A DNA stretch of 64,000 nucleotides, taken from the NCBI GenBank assembly GCA_963845565.1, contig CAWJSJ010000002.1:1088001-1152000 (forward strand). The letters run 5' to 3'. The stretch comes from an uncultured Methylomirabilota bacterium (GTDB lineage: Bacteria > Methylomirabilota > Methylomirabilia > Methylomirabilales > 2-02-FULL-66-22). A model generated the notes under the pieces. The model did not search any database and had not been told where the DNA came from. It saw nothing but the letters and a program-made list of their open reading frames with translations. Made by a program: the position numbers and the translations under genes. Shown in pieces: positions 5,383 to 62,253 of this stretch (position 1 is the stretch's first letter; each line of letters begins with the position of its first letter).

Positions 5383-5503
5383 GGCCGCTGAAAACGGTCC
5401 ATCTGCTGCGTTGGCCCGCTCGGGCACTCGCTGCGGCGTACCCAGTGTACGCCTCACTCGGCCCTTCGCGGACCGCCTTGCACCTGGGCCGTTTTGAGCG
5501 GCC
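5383..5503. repeat. ~125-bp palindromic intergenic repeat, copy 1 (MITE/REPIN-like)
   Basis: GGCCGCTGAAAACGG...GGCGTAC-N5-GTACGCC...CCGTTTTGAGCGGCC; homologous to 14437, 23435, 62099. Confidence 0.9.
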
Positions 5504-5645
5504 TGGCGCAACCTGTGTCGTTCCGCACCGTTCTCGTTTTTCGGATCGCGATGTTCTTGCGGCGCGGGCCAGCCTCTCGTCGTGGCCCGTGCCGCCCCGA
5601 ACGGACACCGGGCCACTCTCCTCGCACCCCACCGGGAGTTCTTCC

Positions 5646-7112
5646 ATGGCACACCGCGTGTCGTTTCCCGCCGTGGCCGCGTTCCGCGACGTGGCGGCTT
5701 TCAAGGCACACCTGGCCACGCTGCCCATCCGCCTGGCGTGCGACGATGCGCTGCTGTCTCCGGACCGGAGCGTCCTGGCGCAGCCGCTGCGGGTGGAAGG
5801 GCGCCTGGTCGGCAACCGGCTCTGCATCCATGCCATGGGCGGGATGGACGGGACGCCGGACGGGAAGACCACTGAACTCGTCACGCGGCGCTGGGTGAAT
5901 TTCGGGCGGTCGGGCGCCAAGCTGATCTGGGGCGGCGAGGCGGCGGCGGTGACGCCCGAGTCTCGAGACAACCCCTTCCAGCTCTATTACCATCCCGACA
6001 ACCGGGCCAGCCAGGAACGATTGCTCCGCGATCTGCGCGCCGCGCACCGCGAGCGCTTCGGGACCACCGACGGCCTACTCGTCGGGCTCCAGATCAGCCA
6101 TTCCGGGCGGTACTGCCGGCCGGACCAGGATTTCCTGGCGAAGCCGCGGATCGCCTACCGGCATCCGCTGCTCGACGAGCGCTCCGGCGTCCGAGACGAT
6201 CGGGCGATCCTGTCCGACATGGAACTGGACGACCTGGTCGGCCACTTCGCGACCTACGCCAGGTTCGCGCAGGAGGCGGGGTTCGACTTCGTGGACGTCA
6301 AGCAGTGTCATGCCTACCTGCTTCACGAGATGCTCTCGGCGCACACGCGGCCGGGCCGGTACGGCGGGAGCTTCGAGAACCGGACGCGGCTATTCCGCGA
6401 GATCGTCACTGCGATTCACCGAGATGTCCCGGGACTCTTGCTCGGGACACGGGTATCCATCTTCGATCTGGTGCCCTTCCAGAAACCGCCGGGCGATCCG
6501 ACGGGGGCCGGCGAACCCGTGCCCTACGAGCACCTGCTACCCTATCGGTATGGGTTCGGCCTCGACCCGGAGCGGCCGACGGAGCCGGACCTCACGGAGC
6601 CGCTGGAACTCCTGCGGCTCTGCGACCGGCTGGGCGTGCGCTTCATCAACATCTCGGCCGGGAGTCCGTACTACAATCCGCATATCCAGCGCCCGGCGCG
6701 CTATCCCCCGTGCGACGGGTACTGGCCGCCCGAGGACCCGCTGATCGGCTGCGCCCGACAGATCGAGGCGGTGGCCCGCTGCAAGGGGGCCTTCCCGCAC
6801 CTCGTCATGGTGGGCACGGGATACTCCTATCTGCAGGAGTACCTGGGCCACGTGGCCCAGGCGCAGGTGCGGCTCGGTCAGGTGGACTCCGTCGGTGTCG
6901 GTCGGCTGGCGTTCGCCTATCCGGACTATACGCACGACCTGCTCTACGGCGGCGGGGTGGTCCGAAAACGGCTCTGCCGCACCGACAGCGATTGCACCAC
7001 CGCGATGCGAAATCGCTTGGTGTCCGGGTGCTACCCGTACGATCCGTTCTACAAGGCACTCCCCGAAGCGCAGCAGCTCCGCCAGATCAAGCGCGGCGCG
7101 CCCCGGCCATGA
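5646..7112 (+). CDS. NADH:flavin oxidoreductase (Old Yellow Enzyme family)
   Basis: GNRLCIHAMGG, QISHSGR, GFDFVDVKQCHAYLL, YGGSFENR motifs. Confidence 0.9.
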   Translation: MAHRVSFPAVAAFRDVAAFKAHLATLPIRLACDDALLSPDRSVLAQPLRVEGRLVGNRLCIHAMGGMDGTPDGKTTELVTRRWVNFGRSGAKLIWGGEAAAVTPESRDNPFQLYYHPDNRASQERLLRDLRAAHRERFGTTDGLLVGLQISHSGRYCRPDQDFLAKPRIAYRHPLLDERSGVRDDRAILSDMELDDLVGHFATYARFAQEAGFDFVDVKQCHAYLLHEMLSAHTRPGRYGGSFENRTRLFREIVTAIHRDVPGLLLGTRVSIFDLVPFQKPPGDPTGAGEPVPYEHLLPYRYGFGLDPERPTEPDLTEPLELLRLCDRLGVRFINISAGSPYYNPHIQRPARYPPCDGYWPPEDPLIGCARQIEAVARCKGAFPHLVMVGTGYSYLQEYLGHVAQAQVRLGQVDSVGVGRLAFAYPDYTHDLLYGGGVVRKRLCRTDSDCTTAMRNRLVSGCYPYDPFYKALPEAQQLRQIKRGAPRP

Positions 7113-7159
7113 GGCCGAGGGCGCAACGCTAGGCTAGGCTCGACCCATCGAGTACCCGA

Positions 7160-7190
7160 GCCGGGGGGCACGACGACGCCCCCCGGTTTC
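7160..7190 (+). terminator. Putative intrinsic terminator
   Basis: CCGGGGGGC-N8-GCCCCCCGG followed by a short T tract. Confidence 0.45.
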
Positions 7191-7316
7191 GATTTGTGCG
7201 CATCTCGAACGCCCCGCATGGCGGCCCGCGGTCAGTCGTTTTCCCTTGCCATGATCGGACCCTTTCATGTAAGTATCCGGTCTGCCCGCGACCGCGGGAG
7301 GGGGAATCGTCTGCCC

Positions 7317-8195
7317 ATGTACGCGCTCCAGGATGTCATCCAGTTCGTCTTCGCCGGGCTGACCAGCGGGGCCATCTACGCCATGGTCGCCATGGGGTTC
7401 GGCGTCGTCCACAACACCATGGGGATCGTGAACTTCACCCAGGTGGACTTCGTCTCGCTGGGCGGGATGTTCCTCTACGGCGCGCTGGTCGGCGCGAAGC
7501 TGCCGATGGCGGCGGCGCTGCTGGTGGCGGTGGCCGGGGTCACGCTGGCGGGGGCGCTGGTGGAATACCTGGGGCTCCGACCGTCGCGCTCGCGGCATCC
7601 CCTGATCCTCATCTTCCTCACCATCGGCCTCTCCATCATGTTGCGCGGCATCATGCAGGCGGTCTGGGGCAAGAACTCTCTGGCCGTGCCCCCGCTCCTG
7701 GGGGAGGAGCCGCTCACGATCCTGGGCGCCACCATTCTGCCCCAGGCCGTCTGGATCCTGATGATGACCGCCGTGGCCATCGGCCTCCTGGTGGTCTTCT
7801 TCCGAAAGACGACCGCGGGGCTCGCCATGCGGGGCGCGGCGTCGAACCCGACGGCGGCCGCCGTGGTGGGCCTGGTGGTCCCGCGGCTCCGGACGCTGAG
7901 TTTCGCCCTCGCGGGGTTTTTGGGTGGGCTGGCGGGTGTCCTGATCACGCCGATCACCACGCTTCGGTACGATATCGGCGTCCTGCTCGGCCTCAAGGGG
8001 TTCGCCGCGGCCATCCTGGGGGGATTCGGCTCGTTCCCCGGCGCCATCCTGGGAGGGGTCGCCCTGGGCCTACTGGAGTCGCTGGGTGCCGCCTATGTGA
8101 GCAGCGCCTGGAAGGACAGCATCGCCTTCGTCGTGCTCCTCTTGGTGCTCTTCGTCAGGCCGCACGGCCTGTTGGGAAAGGCGGTGCGGCCGTGA
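7317..8195 (+). CDS. livH: Branched-chain amino acid-type ABC permease
   Basis: GLTSGAIYAMVAMG...VNF; LKGFAAAILGG motifs. Confidence 0.9.
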   Translation: MYALQDVIQFVFAGLTSGAIYAMVAMGFGVVHNTMGIVNFTQVDFVSLGGMFLYGALVGAKLPMAAALLVAVAGVTLAGALVEYLGLRPSRSRHPLILIFLTIGLSIMLRGIMQAVWGKNSLAVPPLLGEEPLTILGATILPQAVWILMMTAVAIGLLVVFFRKTTAGLAMRGAASNPTAAAVVGLVVPRLRTLSFALAGFLGGLAGVLITPITTLRYDIGVLLGLKGFAAAILGGFGSFPGAILGGVALGLLESLGAAYVSSAWKDSIAFVVLLLVLFVRPHGLLGKAVRP

Positions 8196-10018
8196 CGCGA
8201 CGAGTGCTGATGGGGAACGAGGCCATCGGGCGCGGGATCGTGGAGTGCGGATGCGCCGTGGCCACCTCGTATCCCGGGACGCCCGCCTCGGAGATCCTGG
8301 AGGCGGTGGTGGCCTTCTCGAAGGAGGCGGAACACCGGCTGCACGTCGAGTGGTCGGTGAACGAGAAGGTCGCCTATGAAGTCGCGCTGGCCGCCAGCTA
8401 CACCGGCAAGCGCGCCGCGGTCTCCATGAAGCAGGTGGGGCTGAACGTGGCCTCGGACCCCTTCATGCGGTCGGCCTATCTGGGGGTCAAGGGCGGGCTG
8501 CTGCTCGTCTCGGCCGACGACCCGGGCCCCCACAGCTCGCAGACCGAGCAGGACAGCCGATTCTTCGCCATGTTCGCCAAGATCCCGGTGCTCGATCCGT
8601 CCTGTCCCCGCGAGGCCAAGGAGATGGTCCGGCTGGCGTTCGAACTGTCGGAGGCGTACGAGATCCCGGTGATGCTCCGGCCGACGACGCGCGTCTGCCA
8701 CGCCCGGCAGGCCGTCCCGCTCCTCGACGTGGATCGGGACGGTCGCACGGCACGGTTCGAGAAAGATCCGAAGCGCTGGTGCGCCACGCCGCGGTTCGTC
8801 ACGGATCTGCATCGAGCGCTCACGGAGAAGCTCGCACGCCTGGCGGCCGATCCTCGGATCGCTCCGTCGTTCTTTCCGGGGGACGGGACGCGACCCGGGA
8901 CCTGCCTCGTCGGCTCGGGGGTGGCGTTCGCCCACGCCTGGGACGTCCTCGACGAGCTGGGCGTCACCGGAACGGTGGACCGCTACCAGGTCACGGTGCC
9001 GTACCCCCTGCCTCCGGACTTCGTCGCACGCGTGCAGGGGTACGAGCGGATCCTGGTCATCGAGGAGACGTATCCGGTGATCGAGATGCAGCTGACCGAT
9101 CGCCGGATCGCGGGCCGGGTGTCGAAGCTGGTCCCGAACGAGGGGGAACTCACGCCCGAGGTCATCCGACAGGTCCTCGCGACGTTTCTGGGCCTGGCGC
9201 CGTCGCCCCCCGTGGAGGGCCGCCGCCCGCCCGGCGCCCGCCCCACGCTCTGCGCGGGCTGCGGCCACCGCGCGGTCTACTACGCGATCAGCCAGACGTT
9301 CCCCCGGGGGATCTTCCCGGGCGACATCGGCTGCTACACGCTGGGGATGAACCTGGGGGCGGTGGACACCGTCCACTGCATGGGGGCGGGCATCAGCCAG
9401 GCGGCGGGTTTCTATCACGCGTACGCCCAGGACGGGACCGCGTTTCCCACCGTCGTGGCCACCATCGGCGACTCGACGTTCTTCCACTCCGGCATCCCGG
9501 CCCTGGTGAACGCCGCCTCCCAGCAGGCACGCATCATCGTGGTCATCCTGGACAACGGCACCACGGCGATGACCGGCCACCAGCCCACGCCCCAGCTCGG
9601 CGTCACCGCGACGGGCGCGCCCGCTCGACCGGTGTCCATCCGGGACCTCGTCCGCGCGTCGGGCGTGGCTTTTCTCCGGGAGGCGGACGCGTACGACGTC
9701 GACGCGTTCATCGGCTTGCTCCGCGAAGCGGACCGGTACTGCCGCGGCGAGAACGGCGGGGTCGCCGTCATCATCGCCTCCTCTCCGTGCGTGCTCTCCG
9801 GCGAGTCCGGGGCGGCCGGGACCGCGCACGCCGTGCGCGTGACCGAGGAGTGCAGCGGGTGCCGGGAATGCCTCGACATGTTCGAGTGCCCCGCCCTCGT
9901 CTGGGACGACGCGACGGGCACGGTCGGCATCGGGCGGGCCGCCTGCAACCAGTGCGGGGTCTGTCTCCACGTCTGCCCGACGGGGGCGATCGTGGCAGTC
10001 GCCGGGGGGGCGGGATGA
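8192..10018 (+). CDS. iorA: Indolepyruvate:ferredoxin oxidoreductase alpha subunit
   Basis: LMGNEAIGRG, YPGTP, EWSVNEKVA, MKQVGLNVA, GDIGCY, TPP motif GDSTFFHSG, C-terminal 2x[4Fe-4S]; GTG overlaps livH stop. Confidence 0.92.
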   Translation: MTRRVLMGNEAIGRGIVECGCAVATSYPGTPASEILEAVVAFSKEAEHRLHVEWSVNEKVAYEVALAASYTGKRAAVSMKQVGLNVASDPFMRSAYLGVKGGLLLVSADDPGPHSSQTEQDSRFFAMFAKIPVLDPSCPREAKEMVRLAFELSEAYEIPVMLRPTTRVCHARQAVPLLDVDRDGRTARFEKDPKRWCATPRFVTDLHRALTEKLARLAADPRIAPSFFPGDGTRPGTCLVGSGVAFAHAWDVLDELGVTGTVDRYQVTVPYPLPPDFVARVQGYERILVIEETYPVIEMQLTDRRIAGRVSKLVPNEGELTPEVIRQVLATFLGLAPSPPVEGRRPPGARPTLCAGCGHRAVYYAISQTFPRGIFPGDIGCYTLGMNLGAVDTVHCMGAGISQAAGFYHAYAQDGTAFPTVVATIGDSTFFHSGIPALVNAASQQARIIVVILDNGTTAMTGHQPTPQLGVTATGAPARPVSIRDLVRASGVAFLREADAYDVDAFIGLLREADRYCRGENGGVAVIIASSPCVLSGESGAAGTAHAVRVTEECSGCRECLDMFECPALVWDDATGTVGIGRAACNQCGVCLHVCPTGAIVAVAGGAG

Positions 10019-10521
10019 GGCAGCGGATCGTCATCAGCGGCCGCGGGGGGCAAGGCGTCCTCACCCTGACGCGGGTGGTGGCCGAGGCGGCCGCCCTGGC
10101 GGGGCACGAGGTCATCACCACGGAAACGCACGGCATGGCCCAGCGGGGCGGGGCGGTCCTCTCCACGATCAAGGTCGGCGCGTTCCACGGCCCGCTCATC
10201 GCCCCGGGGGAGGCGGAGGTCGGCCTCTTTCTCCACGCGGACAATCTGCCGGTGCACGGCCACTACCTGCGGCCCGGGGGCGCCGTCGTCGTCAACGGGT
10301 GCGCCGCTCCCGGGCGCGACGCCGTGGATGCGGACCGGCTGGCCGGCCTGGCCGGCCAGCGCAGGGGCGCCAACCTCGCCCTGCTGGGCTACGCGGCCGG
10401 CAAGGGCGTCCTGTTTGCGGGGCCCGACCTTTTCGAGGAGACCATCCGACAGACCACGCCGGCGAAATACCTCGAAGGGAACCTGGGCGCCTTCCGGGCG
10501 GGCCTCGGGGCGTCGCGATGA
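10015..10521 (+). CDS. iorB: Indolepyruvate oxidoreductase beta subunit
   Basis: ISGRGGQGV and ETHGMAQRGG motifs; ATGA overlap with iorA. Confidence 0.9.
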   Translation: MRQRIVISGRGGQGVLTLTRVVAEAAALAGHEVITTETHGMAQRGGAVLSTIKVGAFHGPLIAPGEAEVGLFLHADNLPVHGHYLRPGGAVVVNGCAAPGRDAVDADRLAGLAGQRRGANLALLGYAAGKGVLFAGPDLFEETIRQTTPAKYLEGNLGAFRAGLGASR

Positions 10522-11522: not shown

Positions 11523-11531
11523 GGTATACGC

Positions 11532-12323
11532 GTGACCAGCGTCGCATCCGCGCAGCGGCTCCTGGAGATCACGGGCCTGACAAAGCATTTCGGCGGGCTC
11601 CCGGCGCTCCACGAGGTGGGATTCGCGGTGGAGCGGGGGACGGTGACGGCGCTCATCGGCCCCAACGGCGCCGGCAAGACGACGCTCATCAACTGCCTGA
11701 CCGGCGTCCTGCAACCGGACCGCGGGGCGATGGCGTTCGACGGCCACGCGCTGTCGGGGTTGCCCCCGCACCGGATCGCCAGGCTGGGGATCGCTCGCAC
11801 CTTTCAGAACCTGCGTCTCTTTGCGGCCCTGTCGGTCCTGGACAACGTGCTGTGCGGGCTGTCGGCCCAAGCCGGAGACTCGTTCGTGGAGGCCTTCGTG
11901 CGGACGCCCGCGCTGCGCCACCGCGAGCGGCGACTCCGGCTCACCGCCCTGGAGGCGCTGGACACCTTCGGCCTGGCGGATCGCGCCGCCGTCCCGGCCG
12001 ATGCGCTGTCCTACGGCGAGAAGAAGCGGCTGGACCTGGCGCGGGCGTTCGTCTCGAACCCCACGCTGGTGCTCCTGGACGAACCGGTGGCCGGGCTCAA
12101 TCCGGACGAGACCGAGAGGGTGGGGGCGCTCATCCGACAGATGCGGCGCCGGGGCGCCACGCTGCTTCTGGTAGAGCACGACATGGACCTCGTGATGTCG
12201 GTCTCTGACCGGGTGGTCGTGCTGGACGGTGGGCGGCGGATCGCTGAGGGCACGCCGGACGACGTGCGGCGCAATCCCCTGGTCCTCGAAGCGTATCTGG
12301 GCAAGGTGAGTTTGACGGCATGA
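11532..12323 (+). CDS. livG: ABC ATP-binding protein
   Basis: GPNGAGKTT, RTFQN, LSYG, LLDEP, EHDM. Confidence 0.92.
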   Translation: MTSVASAQRLLEITGLTKHFGGLPALHEVGFAVERGTVTALIGPNGAGKTTLINCLTGVLQPDRGAMAFDGHALSGLPPHRIARLGIARTFQNLRLFAALSVLDNVLCGLSAQAGDSFVEAFVRTPALRHRERRLRLTALEALDTFGLADRAAVPADALSYGEKKRLDLARAFVSNPTLVLLDEPVAGLNPDETERVGALIRQMRRRGATLLLVEHDMDLVMSVSDRVVVLDGGRRIAEGTPDDVRRNPLVLEAYLGKVSLTA

Positions 12324-14434
12324 CAGACCTGGAACCGCGGAAGACGCTGCTCGAGATCGAGGGGTTGACCCTCCACTACGGGGCCGCCCAGGCCCTCTTC
12401 GGCATCGACCTCCGGGTTGCGGCAGGAGAGACCGTCGCGATCGTGGGGGCCAACGGTGCGGGGAAGTCGAGCCTCCTCCGGGCGATCACCGGCCTGGTGC
12501 CTCCCTCGGGCGGCCGCGTCCTGCTGGATGGCCGGGATGTGACCGGGCATCCGCCGTCGCGCATGGCGGCGCTGGGGGTGACCCTCTCGCCGGAAGGGCG
12601 CGAGATGTTCAGCGACCTCAGTGTCCGGGAGAACCTCGTGCTGGGCGCGCTGGCCAGCGCGCCGGACAAGGCGGAACTGGGGCGCCGGCTGGAGGAGGTG
12701 TTCCGACGGTTTCCCAAGCTCCGGGAGCGGTCCGGTCAACCCACCGCCACGCTGTCCGGGGGCGAGCAGCAGATGGTGGCCATCGGGCGGGCGCTGATGG
12801 CCCGGCCACGGCTCTTGCTCCTGGACGAGCCGAGCCTGGGTCTCGCGCCGCTGGTGACCGACGAGATCTTCGACATCATCCACCAGCTCGCGCGCGCCGG
12901 GACCACCATCCTGCTGGTGGAACAGAATGCCGCCCGGGCGCTGACGGCGTCCGGCACGGCCCACCTCCTCGCCAACGGTCGCATCGTCCGCTCGGGGAGG
13001 AGCGAGGCGCTGCTGGTCCATCCGGAGCTGCGCCGCGCGTTCCTGGGGGCGGCCTCCAAGAACAATCCCGCGCAGAGTCGCCTGGGAGCCGCCGGTTTGA
13101 CCAATATCCTACTGGAGAAGCCCGACATGAGCCGACTGTCCTTCATGCCCCCGTTCACCTCCGAGGACGCCCTCCGCGCCCACCAGCTTGCGGGTCTCGC
13201 CTGGACCGTGCGGCACGCCCGGGAAGGCTCGCCGTTCTACCGGGAACGGTTGGACGCGACCGGGATCGGCCCCGACGACATGCGCGCGCTGGAGGATGTC
13301 GCCAAGCTTCCACTGACCACCGCCGACGACCTCCGGGACCACTATCCGTTTCCGCTCCGCGCCGTCCCGTACGAGCAGATCGTGCGGATCCATTCGTCGT
13401 CGGGGACCACCGGCAAGCGGAAGATCCTGTGCTACACCCAGAAGGACGTGGATGACTGGGCCCACTTTTTCGCGCGGTGCTACGAGATGGCCGGCGTGAC
13501 GCCGCTCGATCGGGTCCAGATCGCGGTCGGGTACGGCCTGTGGACGGCCGGCGTGGGCTTCCAGGCGGGGTGCGAGCGAATCGGCGCCATGGCGGTGCCC
13601 ACCGGCCCGGGAAACCTGGACCTGCAGTGCGAGTTCCTGGTGGACCTCCAGTCCACGGTCCTGTGCTGCACCGCCTCGATGGGGCTCCTGTTGGCCGAGG
13701 AGATCCACAAGCGGGGCCTGGCGGAGAAGATCAACCTCAAAAAGGTCATCTACGGCTCGGAGCGGTCGTCGCGGTCGATGCGGAAGAGGATCTCGGATCT
13801 CCTGGGGGGCGCCGAGCTCTTCGACATCCCAGGCCTCACCGAGCTCTACGGCCCGGGCACGGGGATCGAGTGCCCGCACCACGACTGCATCCACTACTGG
13901 GCCGATTATTACCTGCTGGAGATCCTCGATCCCGATACGCTGCAACCGGTGCCGCCCGGCGAGTGGGGCGAGATGGTGGTCACCACGCTGGCGAAAGAGG
14001 GGGCGCCGCTCATCCGGTACCGGACCCGCGACGTCACCCGGATCATCCCGGGGGCCTGCACGTGCGGGTCGATCCTCCCGCGCCATTCGAGGATCCGGGG
14101 GCGGACCGACGACGTGTTCAAGTTCCGGGGCGTGAACATTTACCCGTCGACCATCGACGCGATCTTGTCGTCCATTCCCGGTCTCGGCTCGGAGTACCAG
14201 ATCCACCTCACTCGCGATGCCGAGCTGCGCGAACGCATGCGTTTGGTCGCGGAACGGGGCCCCGGAGTGGAGTCGAAGCGGAGCGACGAGCTTCAGCGCG
14301 AGATCGTCCATAACATCAAGCGGCGGGTCATGGTGACCGCCGATGTCGAGGTGGCAGAGTACGGGTCTTTGCCCCGATCCGAGCGCAAGACGCAGCGTGT
14401 GTTTGATACGCGCATCCAGGATCCGATCGTCTAG
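12320..14434 (+). CDS. Fusion of LivF-type ABC ATPase and phenylacetate-CoA ligase (PaaK family)
   Basis: N-terminal GANGAGKS/LSGGEQQ/LDEPSLG; C-terminal HSSSGTTGK, GLTELYGPG, RYRTRD, GRTDD..KFRGVNIYP; single open frame of 704 aa. Confidence 0.88.
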   Translation: MTDLEPRKTLLEIEGLTLHYGAAQALFGIDLRVAAGETVAIVGANGAGKSSLLRAITGLVPPSGGRVLLDGRDVTGHPPSRMAALGVTLSPEGREMFSDLSVRENLVLGALASAPDKAELGRRLEEVFRRFPKLRERSGQPTATLSGGEQQMVAIGRALMARPRLLLLDEPSLGLAPLVTDEIFDIIHQLARAGTTILLVEQNAARALTASGTAHLLANGRIVRSGRSEALLVHPELRRAFLGAASKNNPAQSRLGAAGLTNILLEKPDMSRLSFMPPFTSEDALRAHQLAGLAWTVRHAREGSPFYRERLDATGIGPDDMRALEDVAKLPLTTADDLRDHYPFPLRAVPYEQIVRIHSSSGTTGKRKILCYTQKDVDDWAHFFARCYEMAGVTPLDRVQIAVGYGLWTAGVGFQAGCERIGAMAVPTGPGNLDLQCEFLVDLQSTVLCCTASMGLLLAEEIHKRGLAEKINLKKVIYGSERSSRSMRKRISDLLGGAELFDIPGLTELYGPGTGIECPHHDCIHYWADYYLLEILDPDTLQPVPPGEWGEMVVTTLAKEGAPLIRYRTRDVTRIIPGACTCGSILPRHSRIRGRTDDVFKFRGVNIYPSTIDAILSSIPGLGSEYQIHLTRDAELRERMRLVAERGPGVESKRSDELQREIVHNIKRRVMVTADVEVAEYGSLPRSERKTQRVFDTRIQDPIV

Positions 14435-14436
14435 GC

Positions 14437-14590
14437 GGCTGCTGAAAAAGGCCCATCTGCTGCGTTGGGCCGCTTAGGCGCTCGTTGCGGCGTACCTGGG
14501 GTACGCCTCACTCGGCCTTGCGCGTCCCGCCTTGCATCTGGACCTTTTTGAGCAGCCTAGGGGAAAGCGGGTTTTGCCGAATCCTGCTAG
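14437..14590. repeat. Palindromic intergenic repeat, copy 2, with degenerate third arm ending CCTGCTAG
   Basis: GGCTGCTGAAAAAGG...GGCGTAC-N5-GTACGCC...CCTTTTTGAGCAGCC (to 14557) plus tail. Confidence 0.9.
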
Positions 14591-14614
14591 GCATCTAACC
14601 TGTAAGAGGGGGGA

Positions 14615-22071: not shown

Positions 22072-22119
22072 GCCGTTGTCAAAGAATTAGTTGAGCGGAG
22101 ACATTCCGAAACGGCATAA

Positions 22120-22170
22120 GGAGCCGTACCGAAATAGAAAGAGATGTATAGGTTATTTCGTAACGGCTCC
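22120..22170. mobile_element. 51-bp miniature inverted-repeat element with TAA flanking duplication
   Basis: GGAGCCGTACCGAAATA / TATTTCGTAACGGCTCC (15/17 complementary); TAA at 22117-22119 and 22171-22173. Confidence 0.6.
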
Positions 22171-22292
22171 TAAGCGAGGCGGTCCGCCTGTCGTCCGGAT
22201 CCCTCACAGACTCGTTCCGTAACCTTGCAGCTCATGAAGCCGGGTGACATGCCGTTCCGCGTCCTGCCCAACGCCGACACCCCTCTTCGTCC

Positions 22293-22672: not shown

Positions 22673-23434
22673 ATGATGCAGTTCCAGGGGAAGGCCGTGT
22701 TGATCACGGGTGCCGGCGTGGGGATCGGGCGGGCCGCCGCCGTCCAGTTCGCCAAGGCGGGGGCAAAGGTGGCGGTCAATTCCGTGACGGCGGCCAACGG
22801 GGAAGAGACGGTGCGCCTCGTCAGGGCAGCGGGTGCCCAGGGGGTCTACATCCAGGGCGACGTGTCGCGGGATGCGGATGCGCGGCGCATGGTGGACGAG
22901 ACGGTCAAGGCTTTCGGCCGAATCGACGTGCTGGTCAACAATGCCGGCATCGTGCTGCCGGGCCGCGTCGACAACACCACCGAAGACGATTGGGACCGGA
23001 CGATGGCCGTCAACCTCAAGGGGCCCTTCCTCGTCTCCAAGTACGCGATCCCGGCGATGAAGAAAGTCGGCGGCGGCGTCATCGTGAATACCGCCTCTGT
23101 CGTGGCGACCAAGGGGGTCAAGGATCGGGCCGCCTACACGGCGTCCAAGGGGGGCCTGTGGGCGCTGACCAAGGCCATGGCGGCCGATTACCTGGCGGAC
23201 AAGATCCGCGTGAATTGCGTATGCCCGGGCACCACCGACACGCCGTCCCTCGCACGCCGCATCCAGGCGTTCGCCGACCCGGAAAAGGCGAGAGCGGATT
23301 TCATCGCCCGCCAACCCATGGGCCGGCTGGGGACGGACGAAGAGATTGCCGCGGCCATTCTATTCGCCGCCTCCGATGAGGCTGCGTTCATGAATGGCGC
23401 GGCCATCGCCATCGACGGCGGGATGACGATCTAG
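22673..23434 (+). CDS. SDR family oxidoreductase
   Basis: TGAGVGIG, NNAG, YTASK catalytic motif. Confidence 0.95.
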   Translation: MMQFQGKAVLITGAGVGIGRAAAVQFAKAGAKVAVNSVTAANGEETVRLVRAAGAQGVYIQGDVSRDADARRMVDETVKAFGRIDVLVNNAGIVLPGRVDNTTEDDWDRTMAVNLKGPFLVSKYAIPAMKKVGGGVIVNTASVVATKGVKDRAAYTASKGGLWALTKAMAADYLADKIRVNCVCPGTTDTPSLARRIQAFADPEKARADFIARQPMGRLGTDEEIAAAILFAASDEAAFMNGAAIAIDGGMTI

Positions 23435-23560
23435 CAGGCTGCTGAAAACGGCCCATCTGCGGCGTTGGCCCGCCTCGCCGCTCGCTGCGGCGTACCTCCA
23501 GTACGCCTCGCTCGGGCTTCAGCGTGCCGCCTTGCATCTTGGGCCCTTTTGAGCAGCCTG
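23435..23560. repeat. Palindromic intergenic repeat, copy 3
   Basis: CAGGCTGCTGAAAACGG...GGCGTAC-N5-GTACGCC...TTTTGAGCAGCCTG. Confidence 0.9.
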
Positions 23561-23605
23561 GGGCGAAGATGGAGTATTTTGAACCCCCCAGAGAGGAGCG
23601 GAGCG

Positions 23606-39478: not shown

Positions 39479-41062
39479 ATGCTCAACACGCCGAGAGGGA
39501 CGCAGGGCATGGTCGTGGCGCCGCATCACCTGGCCGCGCAGGCGGGCCTGGCCGTACTACGGGAGGGTGGGAATGCCGTCGAGGCCATGGTCGCCGCCGC
39601 CAGCACCGTCGCGGTGGTCTACCCGCACATGAACAGCATCGGCGGGGACAACTTCTGGCTGATTGCCGAGCCGGGGCGAGAACCGGTGGCCATCATGGCC
39701 TGCGGGGGCGCCGGCGAGAAGGCCACCGCGGAGTTCTACCGCGGGCACGCGAGCATCCCGACGCGCGGGCCGCTGGCGGCGAACACGGTGGCGGGGGCGA
39801 TCTCGGGTTGGGATGCGGCGCTGGCGGTGAGCAAGCGGTGGGGCGGGCGGCTGCCGCTGGGCCGGATTCTGGCGGACGCGGTTTCTTACGGCCGGAACGG
39901 CGCTCCTGTGACGGTGAGCCAGCACAAGAACACCACCGCCAAACTCCCCGAACTGAAAGATGTCCCAGGCTACGCCGGGCAGTTCCTGGTGAACGGGGCG
40001 CCCCCCGCGGTGGCGTCGCTCTTCCGTCAGCCACGGCTGGCGGCCACGCTCGAGCGTTTGGCCCGGGCGGGGCTCGACGACTTTTACCGGGGGGAGATCG
40101 CGGCGGCCAACGCGGCTGATCTGGCGCGGATCGGGAGCCCGGTGACGGCCGCGGACCTCCGGGCGCACCGCGCCCTGGAAACCACGCCGCTGCGCGTGAA
40201 CTTGCGGTCCGGGGTCGTCTATAACGTGCCTCCGCCGACGCAGGGGCTGGCGTCGCTCATGATCCTGGGCGCGTTCGACCGCTTGGGATGCGCCGAGGCC
40301 GAGGGCTTCCCGTTCCTCCATGGACTGGTGGAGTCCACCAAGCAGGCATTCCTGGTACGCGATCGCGTGGTCACGGATCCGGCGTACATGGCGGACGATC
40401 CCGCCGGCTTCCTCACCGACTCCCGGTTGGCGGAGATGGCCGGGCGGATTGACCCGCAGCGAGCCCTCCCGTGGCCCGCGCCCGCGCAGAGCGGGGATAC
40501 CGTGTGGCTGGGGGTCATTGACGGGCAGGGACGGGCCGTGAGCCTGATCCAGAGCATCTACTGGGAATTTGGCTCAGGAGTGGTCCTCGCTGATACGGGC
40601 GTGCTCTGGCAGAATCGCGGCGTGAGCTTCTCGCTTTCGGACACGGCGCTGAACGTCCTCCGGCCGGGGCGGAAACCCTTCCACACGCTCAACCCCGCCA
40701 TGGCCCAGCTCGCGGATGGTCGGCTGATGGTCTATGGAACCATGGGTGGGGAGGGGCAGCCCCAGACGCAGGCGGCCATCTTCGCCCGGCATGTCCTGTT
40801 CGGGCAAGAACTGCAGGCGGCCGTTACCGCGCCGCGCTGGCTGCTGGGGCGGACCTGGGGAGCGGCCAGCACGAACCTGAAGCTGGAGAGCCGATTCGAT
40901 CCCTCGGTGATCGAGGCGCTCCGGAAAGCCGGCCACGACGTCGAGGTGGTGGCGCCCTTCACCGATATCATGGGTCACGCCGGCGGCATCGTCCGGCACC
41001 CGTCGGGCGTTCTGGAAGGCGCCGCCGACCCGCGAGGCGACGGAGTGGTGGCGGCGTTCTAG
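39479..41062 (+). CDS. ggt: Gamma-glutamyltransferase family Ntn-hydrolase (HpxW/oxamate amidohydrolase-like)
   Basis: GMVVAPHHLA, YPHMNSIGGD, autoprocessing GDTVW, PFHTLNP, GTMGGEGQPQ. Confidence 0.9.
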   Translation: MLNTPRGTQGMVVAPHHLAAQAGLAVLREGGNAVEAMVAAASTVAVVYPHMNSIGGDNFWLIAEPGREPVAIMACGGAGEKATAEFYRGHASIPTRGPLAANTVAGAISGWDAALAVSKRWGGRLPLGRILADAVSYGRNGAPVTVSQHKNTTAKLPELKDVPGYAGQFLVNGAPPAVASLFRQPRLAATLERLARAGLDDFYRGEIAAANAADLARIGSPVTAADLRAHRALETTPLRVNLRSGVVYNVPPPTQGLASLMILGAFDRLGCAEAEGFPFLHGLVESTKQAFLVRDRVVTDPAYMADDPAGFLTDSRLAEMAGRIDPQRALPWPAPAQSGDTVWLGVIDGQGRAVSLIQSIYWEFGSGVVLADTGVLWQNRGVSFSLSDTALNVLRPGRKPFHTLNPAMAQLADGRLMVYGTMGGEGQPQTQAAIFARHVLFGQELQAAVTAPRWLLGRTWGAASTNLKLESRFDPSVIEALRKAGHDVEVVAPFTDIMGHAGGIVRHPSGVLEGAADPRGDGVVAAF

Positions 41063-50937: not shown

Positions 50938-51026
50938 GGTGATTTTCTGCCCACGATATGCGCACGCACCCCCCGCGCGTGTCGAAAGGGCGGGCAGGCG
51001 GCGGTTCAACCGAGAAGGAGGTCTCC

Positions 51027-52193: not shown

Positions 52194-52194
52194 G

Positions 52195-53064: not shown

Positions 53065-54809
53065 TGACCTGGGTGGCCTGGGGGTGTCTCGCGGCGGCGG
53101 CCGGCAGCCTGCCGCTCTTCACGGCCAACACGTACTATCTCTACGTGGCGGCCAGCGTGGGGCTCCTCACCATCGTGACCTCGGGCCTGAACGTCCTGGT
53201 CGGATTCACCGGGCAGATGTCGCTCGGCCATGCGGGCTTCTATGCCATCGGGGCCTACGCGGCCGCCGTCCTCACGACCCGCGCCGGGTGGAGCGGGTGG
53301 GCCGCCATCCTCGTGGCCATCCTCGTCGCCGCGCTGGTCGGGGCGGGCGTCGCCGGGGCGGCGCTCCGTGTCACCGGGCCGTATCTCGCCATGGTGACGA
53401 TCGCCTTCGGCATCATCGTGGAAGGCATCCTGGTGGAGTGGGTGTCGGTGACGGGCGGCCCCGGCGGCATCTTCAACATCCCGAAGCCGTCGCTCCATGC
53501 CTTCTACTGGGTGATCATGGGTGGGGCGGCGGTGTCGCTCTGGCTGGTGGCGAACCTGCGCCGCTCGGCGTGGGGCCGCGCCTTCCTGGCGGTGAAGGGG
53601 AGCGATGTGGCGGCCGAGTCGCTCGGCCTGTCGGCCTATTATGTCCGGATCATGGCCTTCACCGTCTCGGCGGGCTTCGCCGGAGCGGCGGGCGGCCTGT
53701 TCGCGCTCCTCAACGGCTACGTCTCGCCGGACAGCTTCACGCTCCAGACGTCCATCCTGTTCCTGCTGGCGCTCCTCTTCGGCGGCGAGGGCCGCGTGGC
53801 GGGCCCGGTGGCGGGGAGCATCGCCCTCACGCTCTTGCCCGAGTTCCTGACGAGTCTCGCCGACTTCCGGCTGATCCTTTACGGCGGCCTCTTGATGTGT
53901 TCCATCTACTGGCTGCCGACCGGCGTGGTCGGCGCGCTGACCAGACGGGGCGACAGCGACAGGGACAGGGATGGGGACAGGGATAGCGACAGCGACAGGG
54001 ATGGGAACAGGGACAGGGACGGGGATCGGGACAGCGGGGGGGCTGCGCCGTTGCTTCAGGTGGAGAAGGCGAGTCTGGCCTTCGGCGGCGTGGCGGCGCT
54101 GTCCGAGGTGACGCTGGCCGTGCCTGCGCGCGGGATCCAGGCGGTCATCGGGCCCAACGGCGCGGGGAAGACGACGCTCCTGAACGCCCTGTCGGGCTTC
54201 TACGTGCCCGACAGCGGGGGGATCCGCCTCCGCGAGGTGCCCGTTGCGGGGCGGCCGCCGTACGCCATCGCGCGGCTCGGCGTGGCGCGGACGTTCCAGA
54301 CCGCGCAGGTCTTCGGCGACCTCAGCGTGGCGGAGAACGTGGCCGTCGGGGTGGCGGGACCGCGCCTGGGCTCCGTCGTGGCGGCGCTGGTCGGAGCCCC
54401 GTGGACGCGCGCGGCCGAGGCGCGCCTGCGCCGCCGCGCGCTGGCGCTTCTCGCCGAAGCGGGCTTGACCGAGTGGGTCGAGCGACCCGCCGACGCCCTG
54501 CCGGCGGGCCTGCGCCGCCGCCTGGAGATCGTGCGCGCGCTGGCCCGGAAGCCGCGGCTGCTCCTGCTGGACGAACCGGCGGCGGGCCTCGCCCCGGCCG
54601 AGATCGCCGAGTTGGACGCCTATCTGGCCCGCTTGCGGGACACGGGCGGGCCCGCAGTCGTCCTGGTGGAACACCACATGGACTTGGTCATGGCGGTGTC
54701 GGATCACATCACCGTCCTGGATTACGGACGGGTGATCGCCAGCGGGACGCCGGAGGCCGTGCGGACCAACCCCGCCGTGATCGAAGCCTATCTGGGGGTG
54801 TCGGAATGA
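53064..54809 (+). CDS. LivM permease-LivG ATPase fusion with Arg/Asp-rich linker
   Basis: GQMSLGHAGF...; linker; GPNGAGKTT, RTFQ, LLDEP. Confidence 0.9.
   Translation: MTWVAWGCLAAAAGSLPLFTANTYYLYVAASVGLLTIVTSGLNVLVGFTGQMSLGHAGFYAIGAYAAAVLTTRAGWSGWAAILVAILVAALVGAGVAGAALRVTGPYLAMVTIAFGIIVEGILVEWVSVTGGPGGIFNIPKPSLHAFYWVIMGGAAVSLWLVANLRRSAWGRAFLAVKGSDVAAESLGLSAYYVRIMAFTVSAGFAGAAGGLFALLNGYVSPDSFTLQTSILFLLALLFGGEGRVAGPVAGSIALTLLPEFLTSLADFRLILYGGLLMCSIYWLPTGVVGALTRRGDSDRDRDGDRDSDSDRDGNRDRDGDRDSGGAAPLLQVEKASLAFGGVAALSEVTLAVPARGIQAVIGPNGAGKTTLLNALSGFYVPDSGGIRLREVPVAGRPPYAIARLGVARTFQTAQVFGDLSVAENVAVGVAGPRLGSVVAALVGAPWTRAAEARLRRRALALLAEAGLTEWVERPADALPAGLRRRLEIVRALARKPRLLLLDEPAAGLAPAEIAELDAYLARLRDTGGPAVVLVEHHMDLVMAVSDHITVLDYGRVIASGTPEAVRTNPAVIEAYLGVSE
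53952..54035 (+). repeat. In-frame degenerate hexanucleotide repeat, 14 units (GACAGG-like)
   Basis: gacagc gacagg gacagg gatggg gacagg... encoding DSDRDRDGDRDSDSDRDGNRDRDGDRDS. Confidence 0.85.
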
Positions 54810-55549: not shown

Positions 55550-55590
55550 TCCCTGTGGACTGTGGTGCGCCCAGCCGACGAGGAGTGTTC

Positions 55591-58067: not shown

Positions 58068-58186
58068 GCCGGATGTTCGCGGGTGCGGTCTTGACGGATC
58101 TGCCGGCCTTTGACATCCTCACCAGGTCCACATTTCCTCGGGTGTCCAACCATCTACGTCTCTTAACGCCTTTCAGGAGGGGTGTC

Positions 58187-59182: not shown

Positions 59183-59196
59183 GCCGGGAGGTCTCC

Positions 59197-59704
59197 ATGC
59201 TGGATCGCGTCGCACGATTCATCGCGCGGATCGAGGACATCAGCGTCGGGGTGATCCTCCTGGGGGCGACCTTCATCCTGTTCCAGGGGGTCGTCCTCCG
59301 CTATGCGTTCAACTACTCCTTCGCCTGGACGGAGGAGGTCGTCCGGTACTCGATCGTCTGGCTGGTGTTCATCGGGGGCAGCATCGCGGCGCGGCGGGGG
59401 GCGCACATCTGCATGGACATCATCGTGGTGTACCTCCCGCCACGCGCGAAGCTGTTCATGGCGGCGCTCGCCACGGCGATCGCCTGCCTGTTCACGCTGC
59501 TCATCACGTACTACGGGGTGATCTCTGACCTGGTCCATCTGGAGCTACGACCAGCGCTCCCCGGCCGGCGAGTTTCCCATGGCTCTGGCGTTTGCGGCGG
59601 TACCCGTGGGATGCGCGCTCATGAGCATCCGGTTCTTCGTGGCGTTTTCGGCATACGCCCGGGGACGGGATCCCTTCCAGAAGCGCGCCCACCTGGAGGC
59701 CTGA
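59197..59704 (+). CDS. dctQ: TRAP small permease (frameshift near 59525)
   Basis: RY.FN...WTEEV.RY, HI.MD; shifted frame QRSPA...stop 59702-59704. Confidence 0.85.
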
Positions 59705-59707
59705 TCC

Positions 59708-60994
59708 ATGGTGACATCCCTTTTTATTCTGTTCGTCGTCCTGCTCGCCATGGCGGTCCCGATCTTCGTGGTTCTCTCGTTTTCCACGCTGGCCGCCTTT
59801 TGGATGCACTCGCCGATTCCGCTCGAAACGATCGTTCAGCGACTCTTCGCCGGCCTGGACAAATTTGCGCTGATGGCCATCCCGTTCTTCATCGTGGCCG
59901 CCAACGTGATGAGCGCGGGGGGAATGTCGCGCCGGATCATCGCGGTGGCGAACGTCCTGGTCGGGCCGTTTCCGGGCGGCCTCGCGATGGCGACGGTCGT
60001 GGCCTGCATGTTCTTCGGAGCCATCTCCGGCTCCAGCCCCGCGACCGTCGTCGCCATGGGGAGCTTGTTGTATCCGGCCCTGGTTCGAGGAGGATACGAT
60101 AAGAGCTTTGCCATCGCGCTGGTGGTGGCGTCCGGATCCATCGCGCTCATCATCCCGCCGAGCATCACCATGATCGTGTACGGGGCGGTGACCGGCGCCT
60201 CGGTGGGGGCCCTGTTTGTGTCGGGGTTCGGTGCGGGGGCCGCGTACGGTCTGGGATTCATGGGGTACAGTTACTACTACGCCAAGCGCCACAAGATCCC
60301 GTCCCTTCCGTGGCCCACCTGGGCCGAGGTGCGGGCGACGCTGGGAGACGCGAAGTGGGGCCTCGGGATGCCCATCCTGATCATCGGGGGCATCTACGGC
60401 GGGATCTTCACGCCGACCGAGGCCGCCGCCGTGGCCGCGGTGTACGCGATCGTGGTGGCGCTGTTCATCTATCGGGAGATCGGTTTCCAGGAATTCTGGG
60501 ACGTGGTGATTCAGTCCGCCGGCAGCACGGCGCAGGTGATGATCCTCCTGGCCGGAGCGTCCGTGTTCGCCTACATCCTCACCAGCGAGCGGGTGACGAT
60601 TGTCCTCACCGAGGCCATCGTCGCGTGGGGCGCCAGCCAGTTCACGGTTCTGATCCTGATCAACATCGCGCTGCTCATCGCCGGGATGCTGATCGACGGG
60701 GCGTCCATCATCCTCATCCTCGGGCCGCTCCTCTTGCCCGTGGCCCAGAAGGTGGGCGTGGACTCGCTCCACCTGGGGATCATCATGGTCGTGAACACCG
60801 CCATCGGGATGTTCACGCCTCCGTTCGGTCTGAACCTGTTCGTGGCGGGCACGGTGGATGAAGAGTGGACCATGGCCAAGATGATTCCGCCCATCCTGCC
60901 CTTCATCTGGGTGAGTCTGATCCCGCTCCTGATCGTGACCTACGTCCCGCAAGTCAGCCTGTGGCTGCCGAGGCTGATCTACGGCGTGCGCTGA
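59708..60994 (+). CDS. dctM: TRAP large permease
   Basis: AIPFF, ISGSS, IIPPS, FTPTEA, TPPFG. Confidence 0.95.
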   Translation: MVTSLFILFVVLLAMAVPIFVVLSFSTLAAFWMHSPIPLETIVQRLFAGLDKFALMAIPFFIVAANVMSAGGMSRRIIAVANVLVGPFPGGLAMATVVACMFFGAISGSSPATVVAMGSLLYPALVRGGYDKSFAIALVVASGSIALIIPPSITMIVYGAVTGASVGALFVSGFGAGAAYGLGFMGYSYYYAKRHKIPSLPWPTWAEVRATLGDAKWGLGMPILIIGGIYGGIFTPTEAAAVAAVYAIVVALFIYREIGFQEFWDVVIQSAGSTAQVMILLAGASVFAYILTSERVTIVLTEAIVAWGASQFTVLILINIALLIAGMLIDGASIILILGPLLLPVAQKVGVDSLHLGIIMVVNTAIGMFTPPFGLNLFVAGTVDEEWTMAKMIPPILPFIWVSLIPLLIVTYVPQVSLWLPRLIYGVR

Positions 60995-61168
60995 GTGTTC
61001 TGCGTGAACGCGTCCCGCCGCCATTTTCGGAGCGGCGGCGGGACGCCATCGCCGCCGCTCCGCCTTTCGCTTGCTGTCCGTTCCGTTTCCTGATAGAAGC
61101 CAATTCAACGATTCCTGGATCGGGATGACGGTCTGCCCTGGCACGTGCCCGTGGAAGGAGGCGTTCCC

Positions 61169-62098
61169 ATGGCCAGCTATCCCGCGAAATACATCTGGAT
61201 GAACGGCGAGCATGTCGAGTGGCCAGACGCCAGGCTCCACGTGAACACGGTGGCCGTCTTGACGGGGGCGAATGTCTTCGAGGGTCTCCGGGCGTATTCG
61301 AATCCGGACGAGCGACAGGTGTATGTCTTCCGGCTACAAGAGCACCTTGCTCGACTGTGGCAGTCCATGAAAGTCATGCGCATGACGCCCCCGTTCACCC
61401 GGGACGAGCTGACCGCCGCGTGCACGGGCCTCGTGGCCCGGAACGGCTTTCACGAGGATGTCCAGGTCCGCCCGACCGTGTACTTCGGCGAGGGAGGCCT
61501 TTACGCATTCACCCCGGACAAGATCGCCACCGGGGCGTTCATCACTTCGACTCCCCGTCGCTGCACGCTCGACGACGAGAAGGGCATCGCCTGCTGCGTC
61601 AGCGCCTGGCGACGCATCGGCGACAACGTCATGCCGCCTCGCGTGAAGGCCGGGGCGAACTACCACCAGAGCCGTCTGGTGAATGTGCAGGCCGCCGTTG
61701 ACGGCTACGACGGCGCCATCATCCTCAACGATCGGGACAAGGTTGCGGAGGGTCCGGGGGCGTGCGTGATGATCGTGCGCGACGGCCGGCCTATCCTGCC
61801 GCCGATCACCGCCGGCGTGCTGGAGAGCATCACCCGAAATACGCTGGTCGAGCTATTCGCGGCGGAGATGAAACTGGACACGCTGGAGCGGGAGGTAGAC
61901 CGGACGGAGTTGTACCTCGCCGATGAGGTGTTTTTCTGCGGCTCGGCCTGGGAGATCACGCCGATCACCTCCGTGGACCGCTACCCGGTGGGCGACGGTA
62001 CAATCGGGCCTGTGACGCGGAAGATCCGGCACATCTATCAGGACGTCATCCGCGGCCGCATGCCGAAGTACAAACACTGGCTGACGCCGGTGTACTAA
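61169..62098 (+). CDS. ilvE: Branched-chain amino acid aminotransferase (class IV)
   Basis: FEGLRAY, FRLQEH, KAGANY, EGPG, LESITR, DEVFFCGS. Confidence 0.9.
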   Translation: MASYPAKYIWMNGEHVEWPDARLHVNTVAVLTGANVFEGLRAYSNPDERQVYVFRLQEHLARLWQSMKVMRMTPPFTRDELTAACTGLVARNGFHEDVQVRPTVYFGEGGLYAFTPDKIATGAFITSTPRRCTLDDEKGIACCVSAWRRIGDNVMPPRVKAGANYHQSRLVNVQAAVDGYDGAIILNDRDKVAEGPGACVMIVRDGRPILPPITAGVLESITRNTLVELFAAEMKLDTLEREVDRTELYLADEVFFCGSAWEITPITSVDRYPVGDGTIGPVTRKIRHIYQDVIRGRMPKYKHWLTPVY

Positions 62099-62253
62099 CA
62101 GGCTTCTGAAAAAGGCCCATCTACGGCGTTGCGCACTCGCGCGGCGCTGCGACGTACGCGCTAAGTACGCCTCGCACCACGCATCGCGCGCCGCCTTGTA
62201 TCTGGGCCTTTTTGAGCAGCCTGAGCAAAAATGAGTTTGTCAGTATCCTGCTA
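62099..62253. repeat. Palindromic intergenic repeat, copy 4, with degenerate third arm
   Basis: CAGGCTTCTGAAAAAGGCCCATCT...GTACGCC...GGCCTTTTTGAGCAGCCTG (to 62223) plus GAGTTTGTCAGTATCCTGCTA. Confidence 0.9.

Follow-up and report, generated by a model that had tools for sequence, protein, structure and literature searches.

Background

The interiors of MITEs are usually regarded as lineage-specific leftovers. Among the better described elements, MITEPsy1 is an IS5-type MITE, a class that the cited passages characterise as short and gene-less, with IS5-type ends, a CTAG/YTAA target and a 4-nt duplication (PMC3189936). ERIC/IRU and Correia (NEMIS) elements are multicopy hairpins adjoining coding sequences, the action of ERIC being orientation-dependent (PMC2229807), and GTAG-type REPs supply TAG stops (PMC3733652). 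In Geobacter metallireducens, Gmet_R1001-R1024 were listed in 2009 as 'predicted short RNA elements' with an alignment in Fig. S1; the passages concerned present this alignment without a structure, a strand, a stop-codon rule or a link to transposons, and report one copy common to two Geobacter species (Gmet_R1005 = GSU0160.1), which in G. sulfurreducens is located between dapAB and dapL (PMC2700814).

The element described here occurs in a 64,000-nt stretch of DNA (the window), whose own genome is 98.7% complete. It shares with MITEPsy1 all the traits named above, it is a multicopy hairpin adjoining coding sequences like ERIC and Correia, and it contributes stop codons as the GTAG-type REPs do. 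Unlike the IS5-type MITEs of the cited passages, its internal duplicate arm is better kept than its real end, and its interior is no IS fragment and is common to elements with the repeats of other families. Furthermore, where ERIC, Correia and REP elements have a described RNA role they act in the co-transcribed mRNA, whereas the favoured fold of the window element lies on the other strand and its family, unlike theirs, spans phyla.

Judged by sequence against the published alignment, the hairpin of the window is the family listed as Gmet_R1001-24: core and length are the same, by eye, some 10 of the 24 rows conform to the strict core pattern, and the central palindrome GRCGTA(G/C)..TACGCC stands in a ~113-nt conserved frame. 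A sequence-only reading of the window had proposed a kinship with Geobacter and Nitrospira repeats, and this is supported. The covariance models of Rfam gave 0 matches at the gathering threshold across the window and 0 at E<=10 for 8 loci from other genomes; a plasmid BLAST with the element gave no match. As far as that alignment reaches, the 2009 repeats are joined to repeat families that number up to hundreds of copies in sediment bacteria not yet cultured, with one structured core common to several phyla amid differing transposon ends and outliving those ends.

Copies in the window and their anatomy

The sequence-only reading had placed four copies on the + strand, each behind a stop codon in a CTAG or CTAA context and ahead of a co-directional gene, and all of this was confirmed (Table 1), together with its motifs; the sequences bear out both the G-G mismatch and the paired changes of copy 1. 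The upstream genes encode a DapA-family protein, a LivF-PaaK fusion, an SDR and IlvE, and the downstream genes an OYE, an ABC binding protein, YhcH and a quinone oxidoreductase. The unit length of ~125 bp given at that stage missed the true right end: the full unit is ~152 bp and gene-less, with an inner hairpin of ~120 nt. The third degenerate arm noted in copies 2 and 4 does exist, but it is the right terminal repeat, which decays freely among copies and is recognisable (<=3 mismatches) in 93/196 copies of this genome.

Table 1. Coordinates of the element copies, their targets and the parts of copy 2 within the window
Feature	Position	Strand	Remark
Copy 1, left target	5377..5380	+	CTAG; TAG stop of DapA-family gene
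Copy 1, whole element	5381..5532	+	hairpin 5381-5505, then decayed tail and right end
Copy 2, whole element	14435..14586	+	behind livF-paaK stop
Copy 2, arm 1 (left terminal repeat)	14435..14449	+	consensus CAGGCTGCTGAAAAA; complement of IS5 right repeat
Copy 2, conserved inner rod	14450..14544	-	predicted fold on - strand
Copy 2, arm 2	14545..14559	+	internal near-copy of terminal repeat; forms a stem with arm 1 that has one fixed mismatch
Copy 2, 12-nt spacer and arm 3	14560..14586	+	arm 3 is the true right terminal repeat, consensus TTTTTCAGCATCCTG; complement of IS5 left repeat
Copy 3	23435..23590	+	behind SDR gene; left target CTAG 23431-23434; decayed right end, position approximate
Empty CTAG stop-codon site	41059..41062	+	ortholog in G009 (L071) bears element
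Copy 4	62099..62250	+	behind ilvE; left target CTAA 62095-62098, right CTAC

Arm 1 holds a backup TGA stop and could pair with either arm 2 or arm 3. In its predicted fold the rod has an internal loop (CAAGGC / AACGC(A/C)G), a variable, covarying middle with tandem G-A, and an apex of GAGGCGTAC-loop-GTACGYCGCA with an A-G mismatch and a bulged A. No intrinsic terminator, which would be a short GC stem ahead of a U-run, was called at copy 2, by a detection limited to loops of 3-8 nt; readings as a SECIS-like readthrough signal or a plain terminator were weighed and dropped.

A probable IS5-type vehicle

Both ends of the element match intact IS5-family elements of same-genus genomes, whose transposase passes NCBIfam NF033581. 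The intact elements carry a left repeat CAGGATGC(T/G)GAAAAA and a right repeat TTTTTCCGCA(G/C)CCTG; the arm 3 consensus is the exact complement of the left repeat of two of them (L040 and L041), and between arm 1 and the right repeat's complement there is a difference of one base. Identical 4-bp flanks are present in 12/14 complete IS5 elements and in 13/93 MITE copies, against 6.0 when shuffled (p=0.004), other repeat lengths being unremarkable; we attribute the weakness of this signal in the MITE copies to their age. Copy 2 retains an intact 4-bp duplication, with CTAG at 14431-14434 (the livF-paaK stop) and again at 14587-14590. Its junction is empty in 4 of 6 orthologous junctions (absent at L078-L081, present at L082, with L086 and L087 left out of the comparison), and 4 of 34 orthologous sites in the related genome G009 are without the element. 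By the same comparison the site of copy 1 is also occupied in G009 (L084), where a differing version also occupies the site of copy 3, with a reversed copy there in G013 (L092).

Short, without coding capacity, multicopy and with orthologous empty sites, the element is by its sequence an IS5-type MITE in this genome, and its copies are very probably units moved by an IS5 transposase, the vehicle; the earlier proposal of a non-autonomous mobile element is borne out by the ends, the duplication and the empty sites. A transposase with matching ends, of a family that the sequence-only reading had not noticed, exists in congeners (G020, G014 and G019), but none was found in the window's own genome via PF05598, PF13546, PF01609 or three transposase queries. 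Across genomes, the number of element copies does not follow the IS5 helper; G020 has 12 transposase copies, yet 1 strict element match.

Docking at stop codons

Genome-wide search extended the four copies to 212, and the same search on 2.1 Mb of reversed sequence gave 0 matches. The sense-tandem arrangement of the window copies holds for 131 of 196 copies, the others being 35 convergent, 28 tandem reversed and 2 divergent; none of the 196 lies inside a called gene. That the element targets or supplies stop codons was upheld in 143/196 copies, 28 of them through the element's own TGA. YTAR is enriched at docked stops (60/104, against 668/4309 genes) and is lacking at the other 44/104. On each of the two replichores the polarity of the copies goes with that of the gene (95:14 and 36:14), a bias that intact IS5 copies do not share (5/15 vs 4/14). 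A lagging-strand-template model was rejected, as the + strand of the element is leading in 130/196, the same proportion as among the genes (66%), although lagging-strand genes have reversed copies somewhat more often (p=0.025). Identity between any two copies stays below 97%, which argues against a recent burst.

Two known systems with a similar habit were considered and rejected. Integron attC sites lie behind stop codons, have a variable middle and fold from the bottom strand, and the window element is likewise found behind stops, with a variable middle and an opposite-strand fold. An attC site, however, should have end boxes that complement each other and should move together with the upstream ORF, whereas the element flanks are inverted in 1/79 and direct in 10/79, the empty sites lose the element only while the gene stays, and the neighbours are ordinary chromosomal genes. 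A REP/REPIN mobilised by RAYT was set aside on the four Y1_Tnp loci of the genome, with the nearest copy ~4 kb off and other palindromic ends at the three Y1 genes whose flanks were examined.

Conservation of the hairpin

As arm 3 divergence climbs from 5% to 54%, core divergence is 2.5-3.8%; conservation of the hairpin thus stays at 96-97% even as the transposon end is lost. Comparison of 30 orthologous pairs gave differences of 2-5% in stems and motifs, 14% at third codon positions and 27% in the tail, with 22 double Watson-Crick changes. Covariation across taxa is strong, at 0.340, against 0.135 shuffled and <=0.094 slid; the invariance of the apex across taxa is partly inherent in the search pattern. 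RNAalifold on a MAFFT alignment recovered the apex alone, a result we ascribe to gap placement in that alignment. The earlier claim of a fold under selection thus finds support in the orthologous pairs, in the divergence of core versus arm 3 and in the covariation, and selection, more likely than passive persistence as junk DNA, maintains the hairpin.

In an ordinary dead MITE, gene conversion between copies and repair templated by the hairpin could produce the symmetry and homogeneity, and the loss of harmful insertions alone could account for position and polarity. Conversion-like swaps are indeed seen: the middle or ends are closer to a non-ortholog in 14/30 orthologous pairs (middles swapped in 6/30, ends non-orthologous in 8/30), and exchange between copies may therefore account for part of the conservation. 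The scarcity of copies between divergent genes and the YTAR enrichment at docked stops also agree with such an origin. It fails, however, to explain why fixed mismatches and bulges persist within perfect stems across taxa, why middle and loop vary by 20-25% beside motifs that vary by 2-5%, why arm 1 is kept and arm 3 lost though both are element edges, and why the strand asymmetry described below opposes the neutral bias. We consider this reading largely disfavoured and improbable.

The strand predicted to fold

The + strand of the element is the strand first described, which runs with the upstream gene in the window copies; in 166/196 copies the opposite strand runs antisense to the gene upstream. 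A-C outnumber G-U oppositions on the + strand both in this genome (177:139 and 39:20) and among 85 sequences (135:44 in the outer stem, 19:2 at the apex), and the tail shows the opposite, neutral bias. Loops are pyrimidine-rich on the + strand and purine-rich on the other. Wobble pairs and loop purines thus both speak for the opposite strand, which gives the better fold in 177/196 copies of this genome, 82/85 cross-taxon sequences and 34/34 Geobacter copies; folding z-scores of the four window copies are -5.6 to -7.8 on it and -3.5 to -5.8 on the + strand. DNA energy parameters prefer the same strand (185/196 and 80/85), and RNA and ssDNA are not separated thereby. The constraint on the fold is probably strand-specific.

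The sequence-only reading had sought the source of this constraint in mRNA processing or stability. By analogy with ERIC or Correia, the hairpin would act in the mRNA, where a terminating ribosome would open the outer stem and expose a cleavage site, and cleavage would set the levels of the upstream and downstream message. Such a role would suit the stop-codon position within operons (131/196), the respectable z-scores of the sense strand, the alternative pairing of arm 1 and the orientation-dependent precedent reported for ERIC (PMC2229807), but the wobble asymmetry and the pyrimidine-rich loops favour the antisense strand, arm 3 is unconserved, and reversed copies are equally conserved with the same element-strand asymmetry, which makes it improbable.

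The reading that best fits our observations, held at somewhat less than even confidence, is that of a vehicle spread by a transposase, with an RNA structure under selection on the antisense strand as its cargo. A trans-acting helper transposase would insert the unit at YTAR (CTAG/TTAG/CTAA, mostly stops) and duplicate 4 bp, which lets the stop codon survive; ends, target and empty sites are observed, and from them we infer transposition. After insertion the right end would be left to decay and the rod preserved, as both are seen to be. The rod would most likely be recognised as RNA in transcripts that approach the upstream gene from the 3' direction, and a host protein bound to the invariant loops would halt or clear such antisense transcripts, while the weaker sense-strand fold would let the operon read through. 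Together, antisense removal and sense readthrough would give an advantage to copies that directly follow a stop and share one polarity. This antisense-RNA role of the rod is itself tentative. It counts against the reading that in the 63/196 copies with a convergent or reversed arrangement the favoured strand lies on the coding strand of a neighbour gene's transcript. In the 4 RNA runs compared, out of 23, contigs pile up on the element, but they are pooled over copies and species and strandless and thus give no evidence on the role.

Distribution and end types

The inner hairpin is more widespread than the IS5 ends: several phyla have it, flanked by IS5, IS1182-like or ISNCY ends or by no transposon ends at all. 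Strict matches are patchy, in 30/66 genomes of the order and 37/151 of the phylum, with 0-478 per genome; L136-L138 and L151 were not scored as an additional phylum, since their genome is placed in the window's own order. Transposase partners for type B and C ends were found in host genomes, and matches to these ends in viral contigs, mostly chance, were accompanied by no transposase. A U-run follows the stem in types A and B, and an A-run in Geobacter and the ISNCY type (type C). Against the vehicle with an antisense structure stand this patchiness, odd for a host function, the lack of a U-run in the Geobacter and ISNCY types, the lack of a helper in the genome and the docked stops without YTAR.

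The same distribution suggests that the rod, from arm 1 to arm 2, may itself be a mobile or homing unit, with the folded strand (ssDNA or RNA) as substrate of a putative enzyme that places the rod behind stops and overwrites copies, the IS ends being a secondary, exchangeable route. In full, a cross-phylum, strand-specific hairpin with its own machinery would home to the stop-codon base on the template side, overwrite itself and have taken up, on separate occasions, ends from three families of transposase. One core with such different ends, the patchiness, copy numbers independent of the IS5 helper, the swapped middles and ends, and nested inserts that differ in 11/30 orthologous pairs are consistent with homing, as are the Geobacter copies. 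However, no transposase, reverse transcriptase or integrase was found in 82 neighbouring ORFs at 120 metagenome loci (L433 left out, and 39 matches without the left motif dropped) or between 39 close copy pairs, the copies show no recent burst, and the four Y1 transposase-like genes are not beside copies. We regard homing as unlikely, though a serious possibility.

Of the 34 copies in Geobacter sp. AOG1, 18 are matched by the HMM of the window's genome at E<1e-3. The Geobacter copies examined have neither IS ends nor a third arm, and still dock in the same polarity, with an upstream stop nearby in 27/34 and 25 of these within a 13-nt band, as judged by a nearby-stop survey, since folds ran into the flanks in the stem-boundary test. 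The core thus follows the stop-codon and strand rule even without transposon ends. The rule is limited, as type B copies of Desulfosarcina cetonica dock less (10/26). A short-flank docking test was positive for 51/91 on both sides alike and so does not discriminate. The observations point to either a new antisense-RNA control element or a new targeting route, and GSU0160.1 in the cultured G. sulfurreducens makes the question directly testable (PMC2700814). Among the docked Geobacter copies, all three stop codons are represented.

Placement and spread of the repeat family

We propose, tentatively and at somewhat less than an even chance of being right, that the family has two layers, a vehicle that would be spread by IS5 transposition and, carried within it, a rod that would be selected as antisense-strand RNA at the ends of genes. 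The repeat family itself is real. On re-examination of the window sequence the four elements (~152 bp; arm 1, inner rod, arm 2, 12-nt spacer, arm 3), their motifs, stop-codon contexts and adjoining genes are as first described, and a search of the 5.36-Mb genome (G000) with an HMM built from them yielded 209 loci in a first round and 212 in a second, making the family multicopy, with 0 matches in a reversed-sequence control of 2.1 Mb. Later counts rest on the 196 of 212 copies that can be anchored at both arms and on gene calls from a hexamer model, which covers 79% of the genome and misses some genes. The association with stop codons holds: a stop lies 1-3 nt before the core in 104 of 196 copies and the element's own TGA terminates the upstream gene in 28, while in a further 11 the stop is at the distal end of the element and the remaining 53 show none of these arrangements. 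Only 651 of 3100 non-coding sites with the target motif YTAR are stops (21%, a figure that missed genes would make too low), and 44 of the 104 docked stops do not match YTAR. Polarity at stops is 104:11 and tracks gene direction on both replichores; 15 autonomous IS5 copies are without such a bias, on a small sample and a crude ORF test.

The resemblance to Geobacter intergenic repeats, suggested in the sequence-only reading, turned out to be identity of family, the Geobacter-type core being that aligned in Fig. S1 of PMC2700814 (2009). Beyond this 2009 listing no other description was found in the open-access literature searched; the supplements of PMC2996986, PMC2229807, PMC3733652, PMC3184786, PMC3189936, PMC10969869 and bioRxiv 2024.01.18.576219 may list copies.

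Locations of elements and neighbouring features in the window, G000 and the compared genome G009
Feature	Location	Strand
Copy 2	window 14435..14586	+
Copy 3 (right end approximate)	window 23435..23590	+
LivF-type ABC ATPase and PaaK phenylacetate-CoA ligase fused in a single 704-aa ORF	window 12320-14434	
Second repeat family (GGAGCCGTTACGAAATAA...), copy	window ~22090-22200	-
Second-family copy at a stop occupied in G009 by the hairpin element; hairpin fragment behind	G000 C1:973593	
Site filled in G009, empty in G000	window 41059	
Short tandem repeat, 6-nt units (GACAGG/GACAGC)	window 53950-54040	
Two versions of the region at window 4.4-24 kb in one assembly, sharing 81-94% identity with it	G009 C69 and C39	
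Middle replaced by TTCGAAA heptamer arrays, outer arms retained	G000 C2:2204096, C5:748867, C2:334428	
Nested ~20-nt palindrome, examples	G000 C1:261708, C2:607628	

A probable IS5 vehicle

Most copies extend 3′ of the first-described end by the 12-nt spacer and third arm, followed by YTAR. In viral contigs the left arm pattern sits where DUF772 transposase genes begin, and a DUF772 protein query found 12 copies in the congener G020 and 1 in G028; the same-genus genomes G014 and G019 have one each, both broken. The transposase of the autonomous elements passes the IS5 model NF033581, their repeats are CAGGATGC(T/G)GAAAAA on the left and TTTTTCCGCA(G/C)CCTG on the right, and identical 4-bp flanks are seen in 12 of 14 complete ones. 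Arm 3 of the element is the complement of this left repeat and arm 1 a near match to that of the right, with a 4-bp direct repeat in 13 of the 93 copies whose arm 3 is readable, against 6.0 after shuffling. Copy 2 is absent at four of six orthologous junctions and present at one; G009 has 44 copies, 34 with an orthologous flank in G000, which is filled at 30 of these sites and empty at 4, and another compared genome (G013) has the element reversed at copy 3's stop. Empty sites, IS5-matching ends and 4-bp repeats bear out the proposed mobile element, and IS5 transposases of this kind occur in the congeners G020, G014 and G019, but no helper was found in G000. Because of this, and because any two copies are less than 97% identical, we take the spread to be old. 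Seven viral-contig MITEs of 150-170 bp (L015, L026, L027, L031, L032, L034, L036) have the same IS5-type ends and unrelated interiors. Four Y1_Tnp genes (L001-L004, ~330 aa) were seen, and the three with flanks examined are bounded by short GGGGACG-type inverted repeats.

Constraint on the core

Conservation is 92-96% in arms 1 and 2 and the inner motifs, 68-70% in the middle and 60-68% in the spacer and arm 3, and core divergence is 2.5, 3.0, 2.9 and 3.8% where arm 3 has diverged by 5, 20, 34 and 54%, respectively. Thirty orthologous pairs differ by 5.1% in the outer stem, 5.0% in the lower motif, 1.9% in the apex (biased low by the search pattern), 20% in the middle, 25% in the loop and 27% in the tail, compared with 14% at third codon positions; they hold 22 double Watson-Crick changes, and several compensated pairs require 12-22 origins on the copy tree, a number inflated by conversion. 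The covariation score of the named structure is 0.340; shuffling brings it to 0.135 and sliding to no more than 0.094 (98 sequences; the shuffles ignore relatedness). A core kept while arm 3 decays, and covariation above both controls, sustain the suggestion that the fold is under selection; a neutral reading fits less well than the two-layered or a homing one and is hardly likely. Counting against selection alone are middles swapped in 6 of 30 pairs, non-orthologous ends in 8 and a nested ~20-40-nt palindrome, carried by 92 of 196 copies, that differs in 11. The nested palindrome of ~20 nt, ACCCATCC..GGATGGGT, is shared with other repeat families, 19 of its 48 pattern matches falling elsewhere than in the element, and other taxa have different small palindromes at similar sites. 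The second-family copy on C1 looks as if inserted into a hairpin element.

The strand predicted to fold

Mismatches on the reader's strand (+ in the window) are A-C rather than G-U by 177:139 in sense copies and 39:20 in reversed ones, and across taxa by 135:44 in the outer stem and 19:2 in the apex; on the opposite strand the A-C mismatches read as G-U pairs, and its loops are tandem G-A, an A-G mismatch and bulged adenines. In the free tail C>T mutations exceed G>A. Folding prediction favours the opposite strand in 177 of 196 G000 copies, 82 of 85 cross-taxon sequences and all 34 Geobacter copies, and DNA energy parameters favour the same strand; since G-U is frequent in the helices, we incline to RNA rather than ssDNA as the folded molecule. 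For the gene upstream, the favoured strand is the antisense one in 166 of 196 copies. The role in mRNA processing or stability first suggested fits less well than the two-layered or homing readings and is quite improbable.

The core beyond this genome

The strict core pattern occurs at no fewer than 119 loci in genome contigs and at least 121 in metagenomes, source records among the matches listed being labelled Desulfobacterota, Nitrospira, Rokubacteria, Gemmatimonadota, Bdellovibrionales and Rhodothermales. Among genomes of the order 30 of 66 carry the pattern, as do 37 of the 151 from the phylum (0-478 matches per genome; control, 0); Desulfosarcina cetonica has 79 matches and Geobacter sp. 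AOG1 has 39. By their ends, 135 matches comprise 25 of IS5 type, 51 of type B, 8 of type C, 7 of Geobacter type and 44 unclassified. Type B shares the three-arm layout, and its ends equal the repeats that belong to a 573-aa transposase; the best model for this protein, IS1182, scores below cut-off. The ends of type C are similar to the ones found with an ISNCY transposase, which scores above cut-off. Between the three transposases (IS5, type B and type C) identity is no higher than 27% over stretches of at least 70 residues. No IS ends were seen in 34 Geobacter copies. The core ranges more widely than its ends. The main alternative to an IS5-spread vehicle with a selected rod is a rod that would home by itself with a putative enzyme of its own, which we consider rather unlikely; no homing enzyme was seen among 82 ORFs beside the core or between 39 close pairs of copies. 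Geobacter copies have a nearby upstream stop in 27 of 34, with the same polarity and 25 within a 13-nt band; such docking is found in only 10 of 26 D. cetonica copies. In related viral contigs the same gene is preceded by a full type B element or by one arm only (L242/L260 versus L231/L257).
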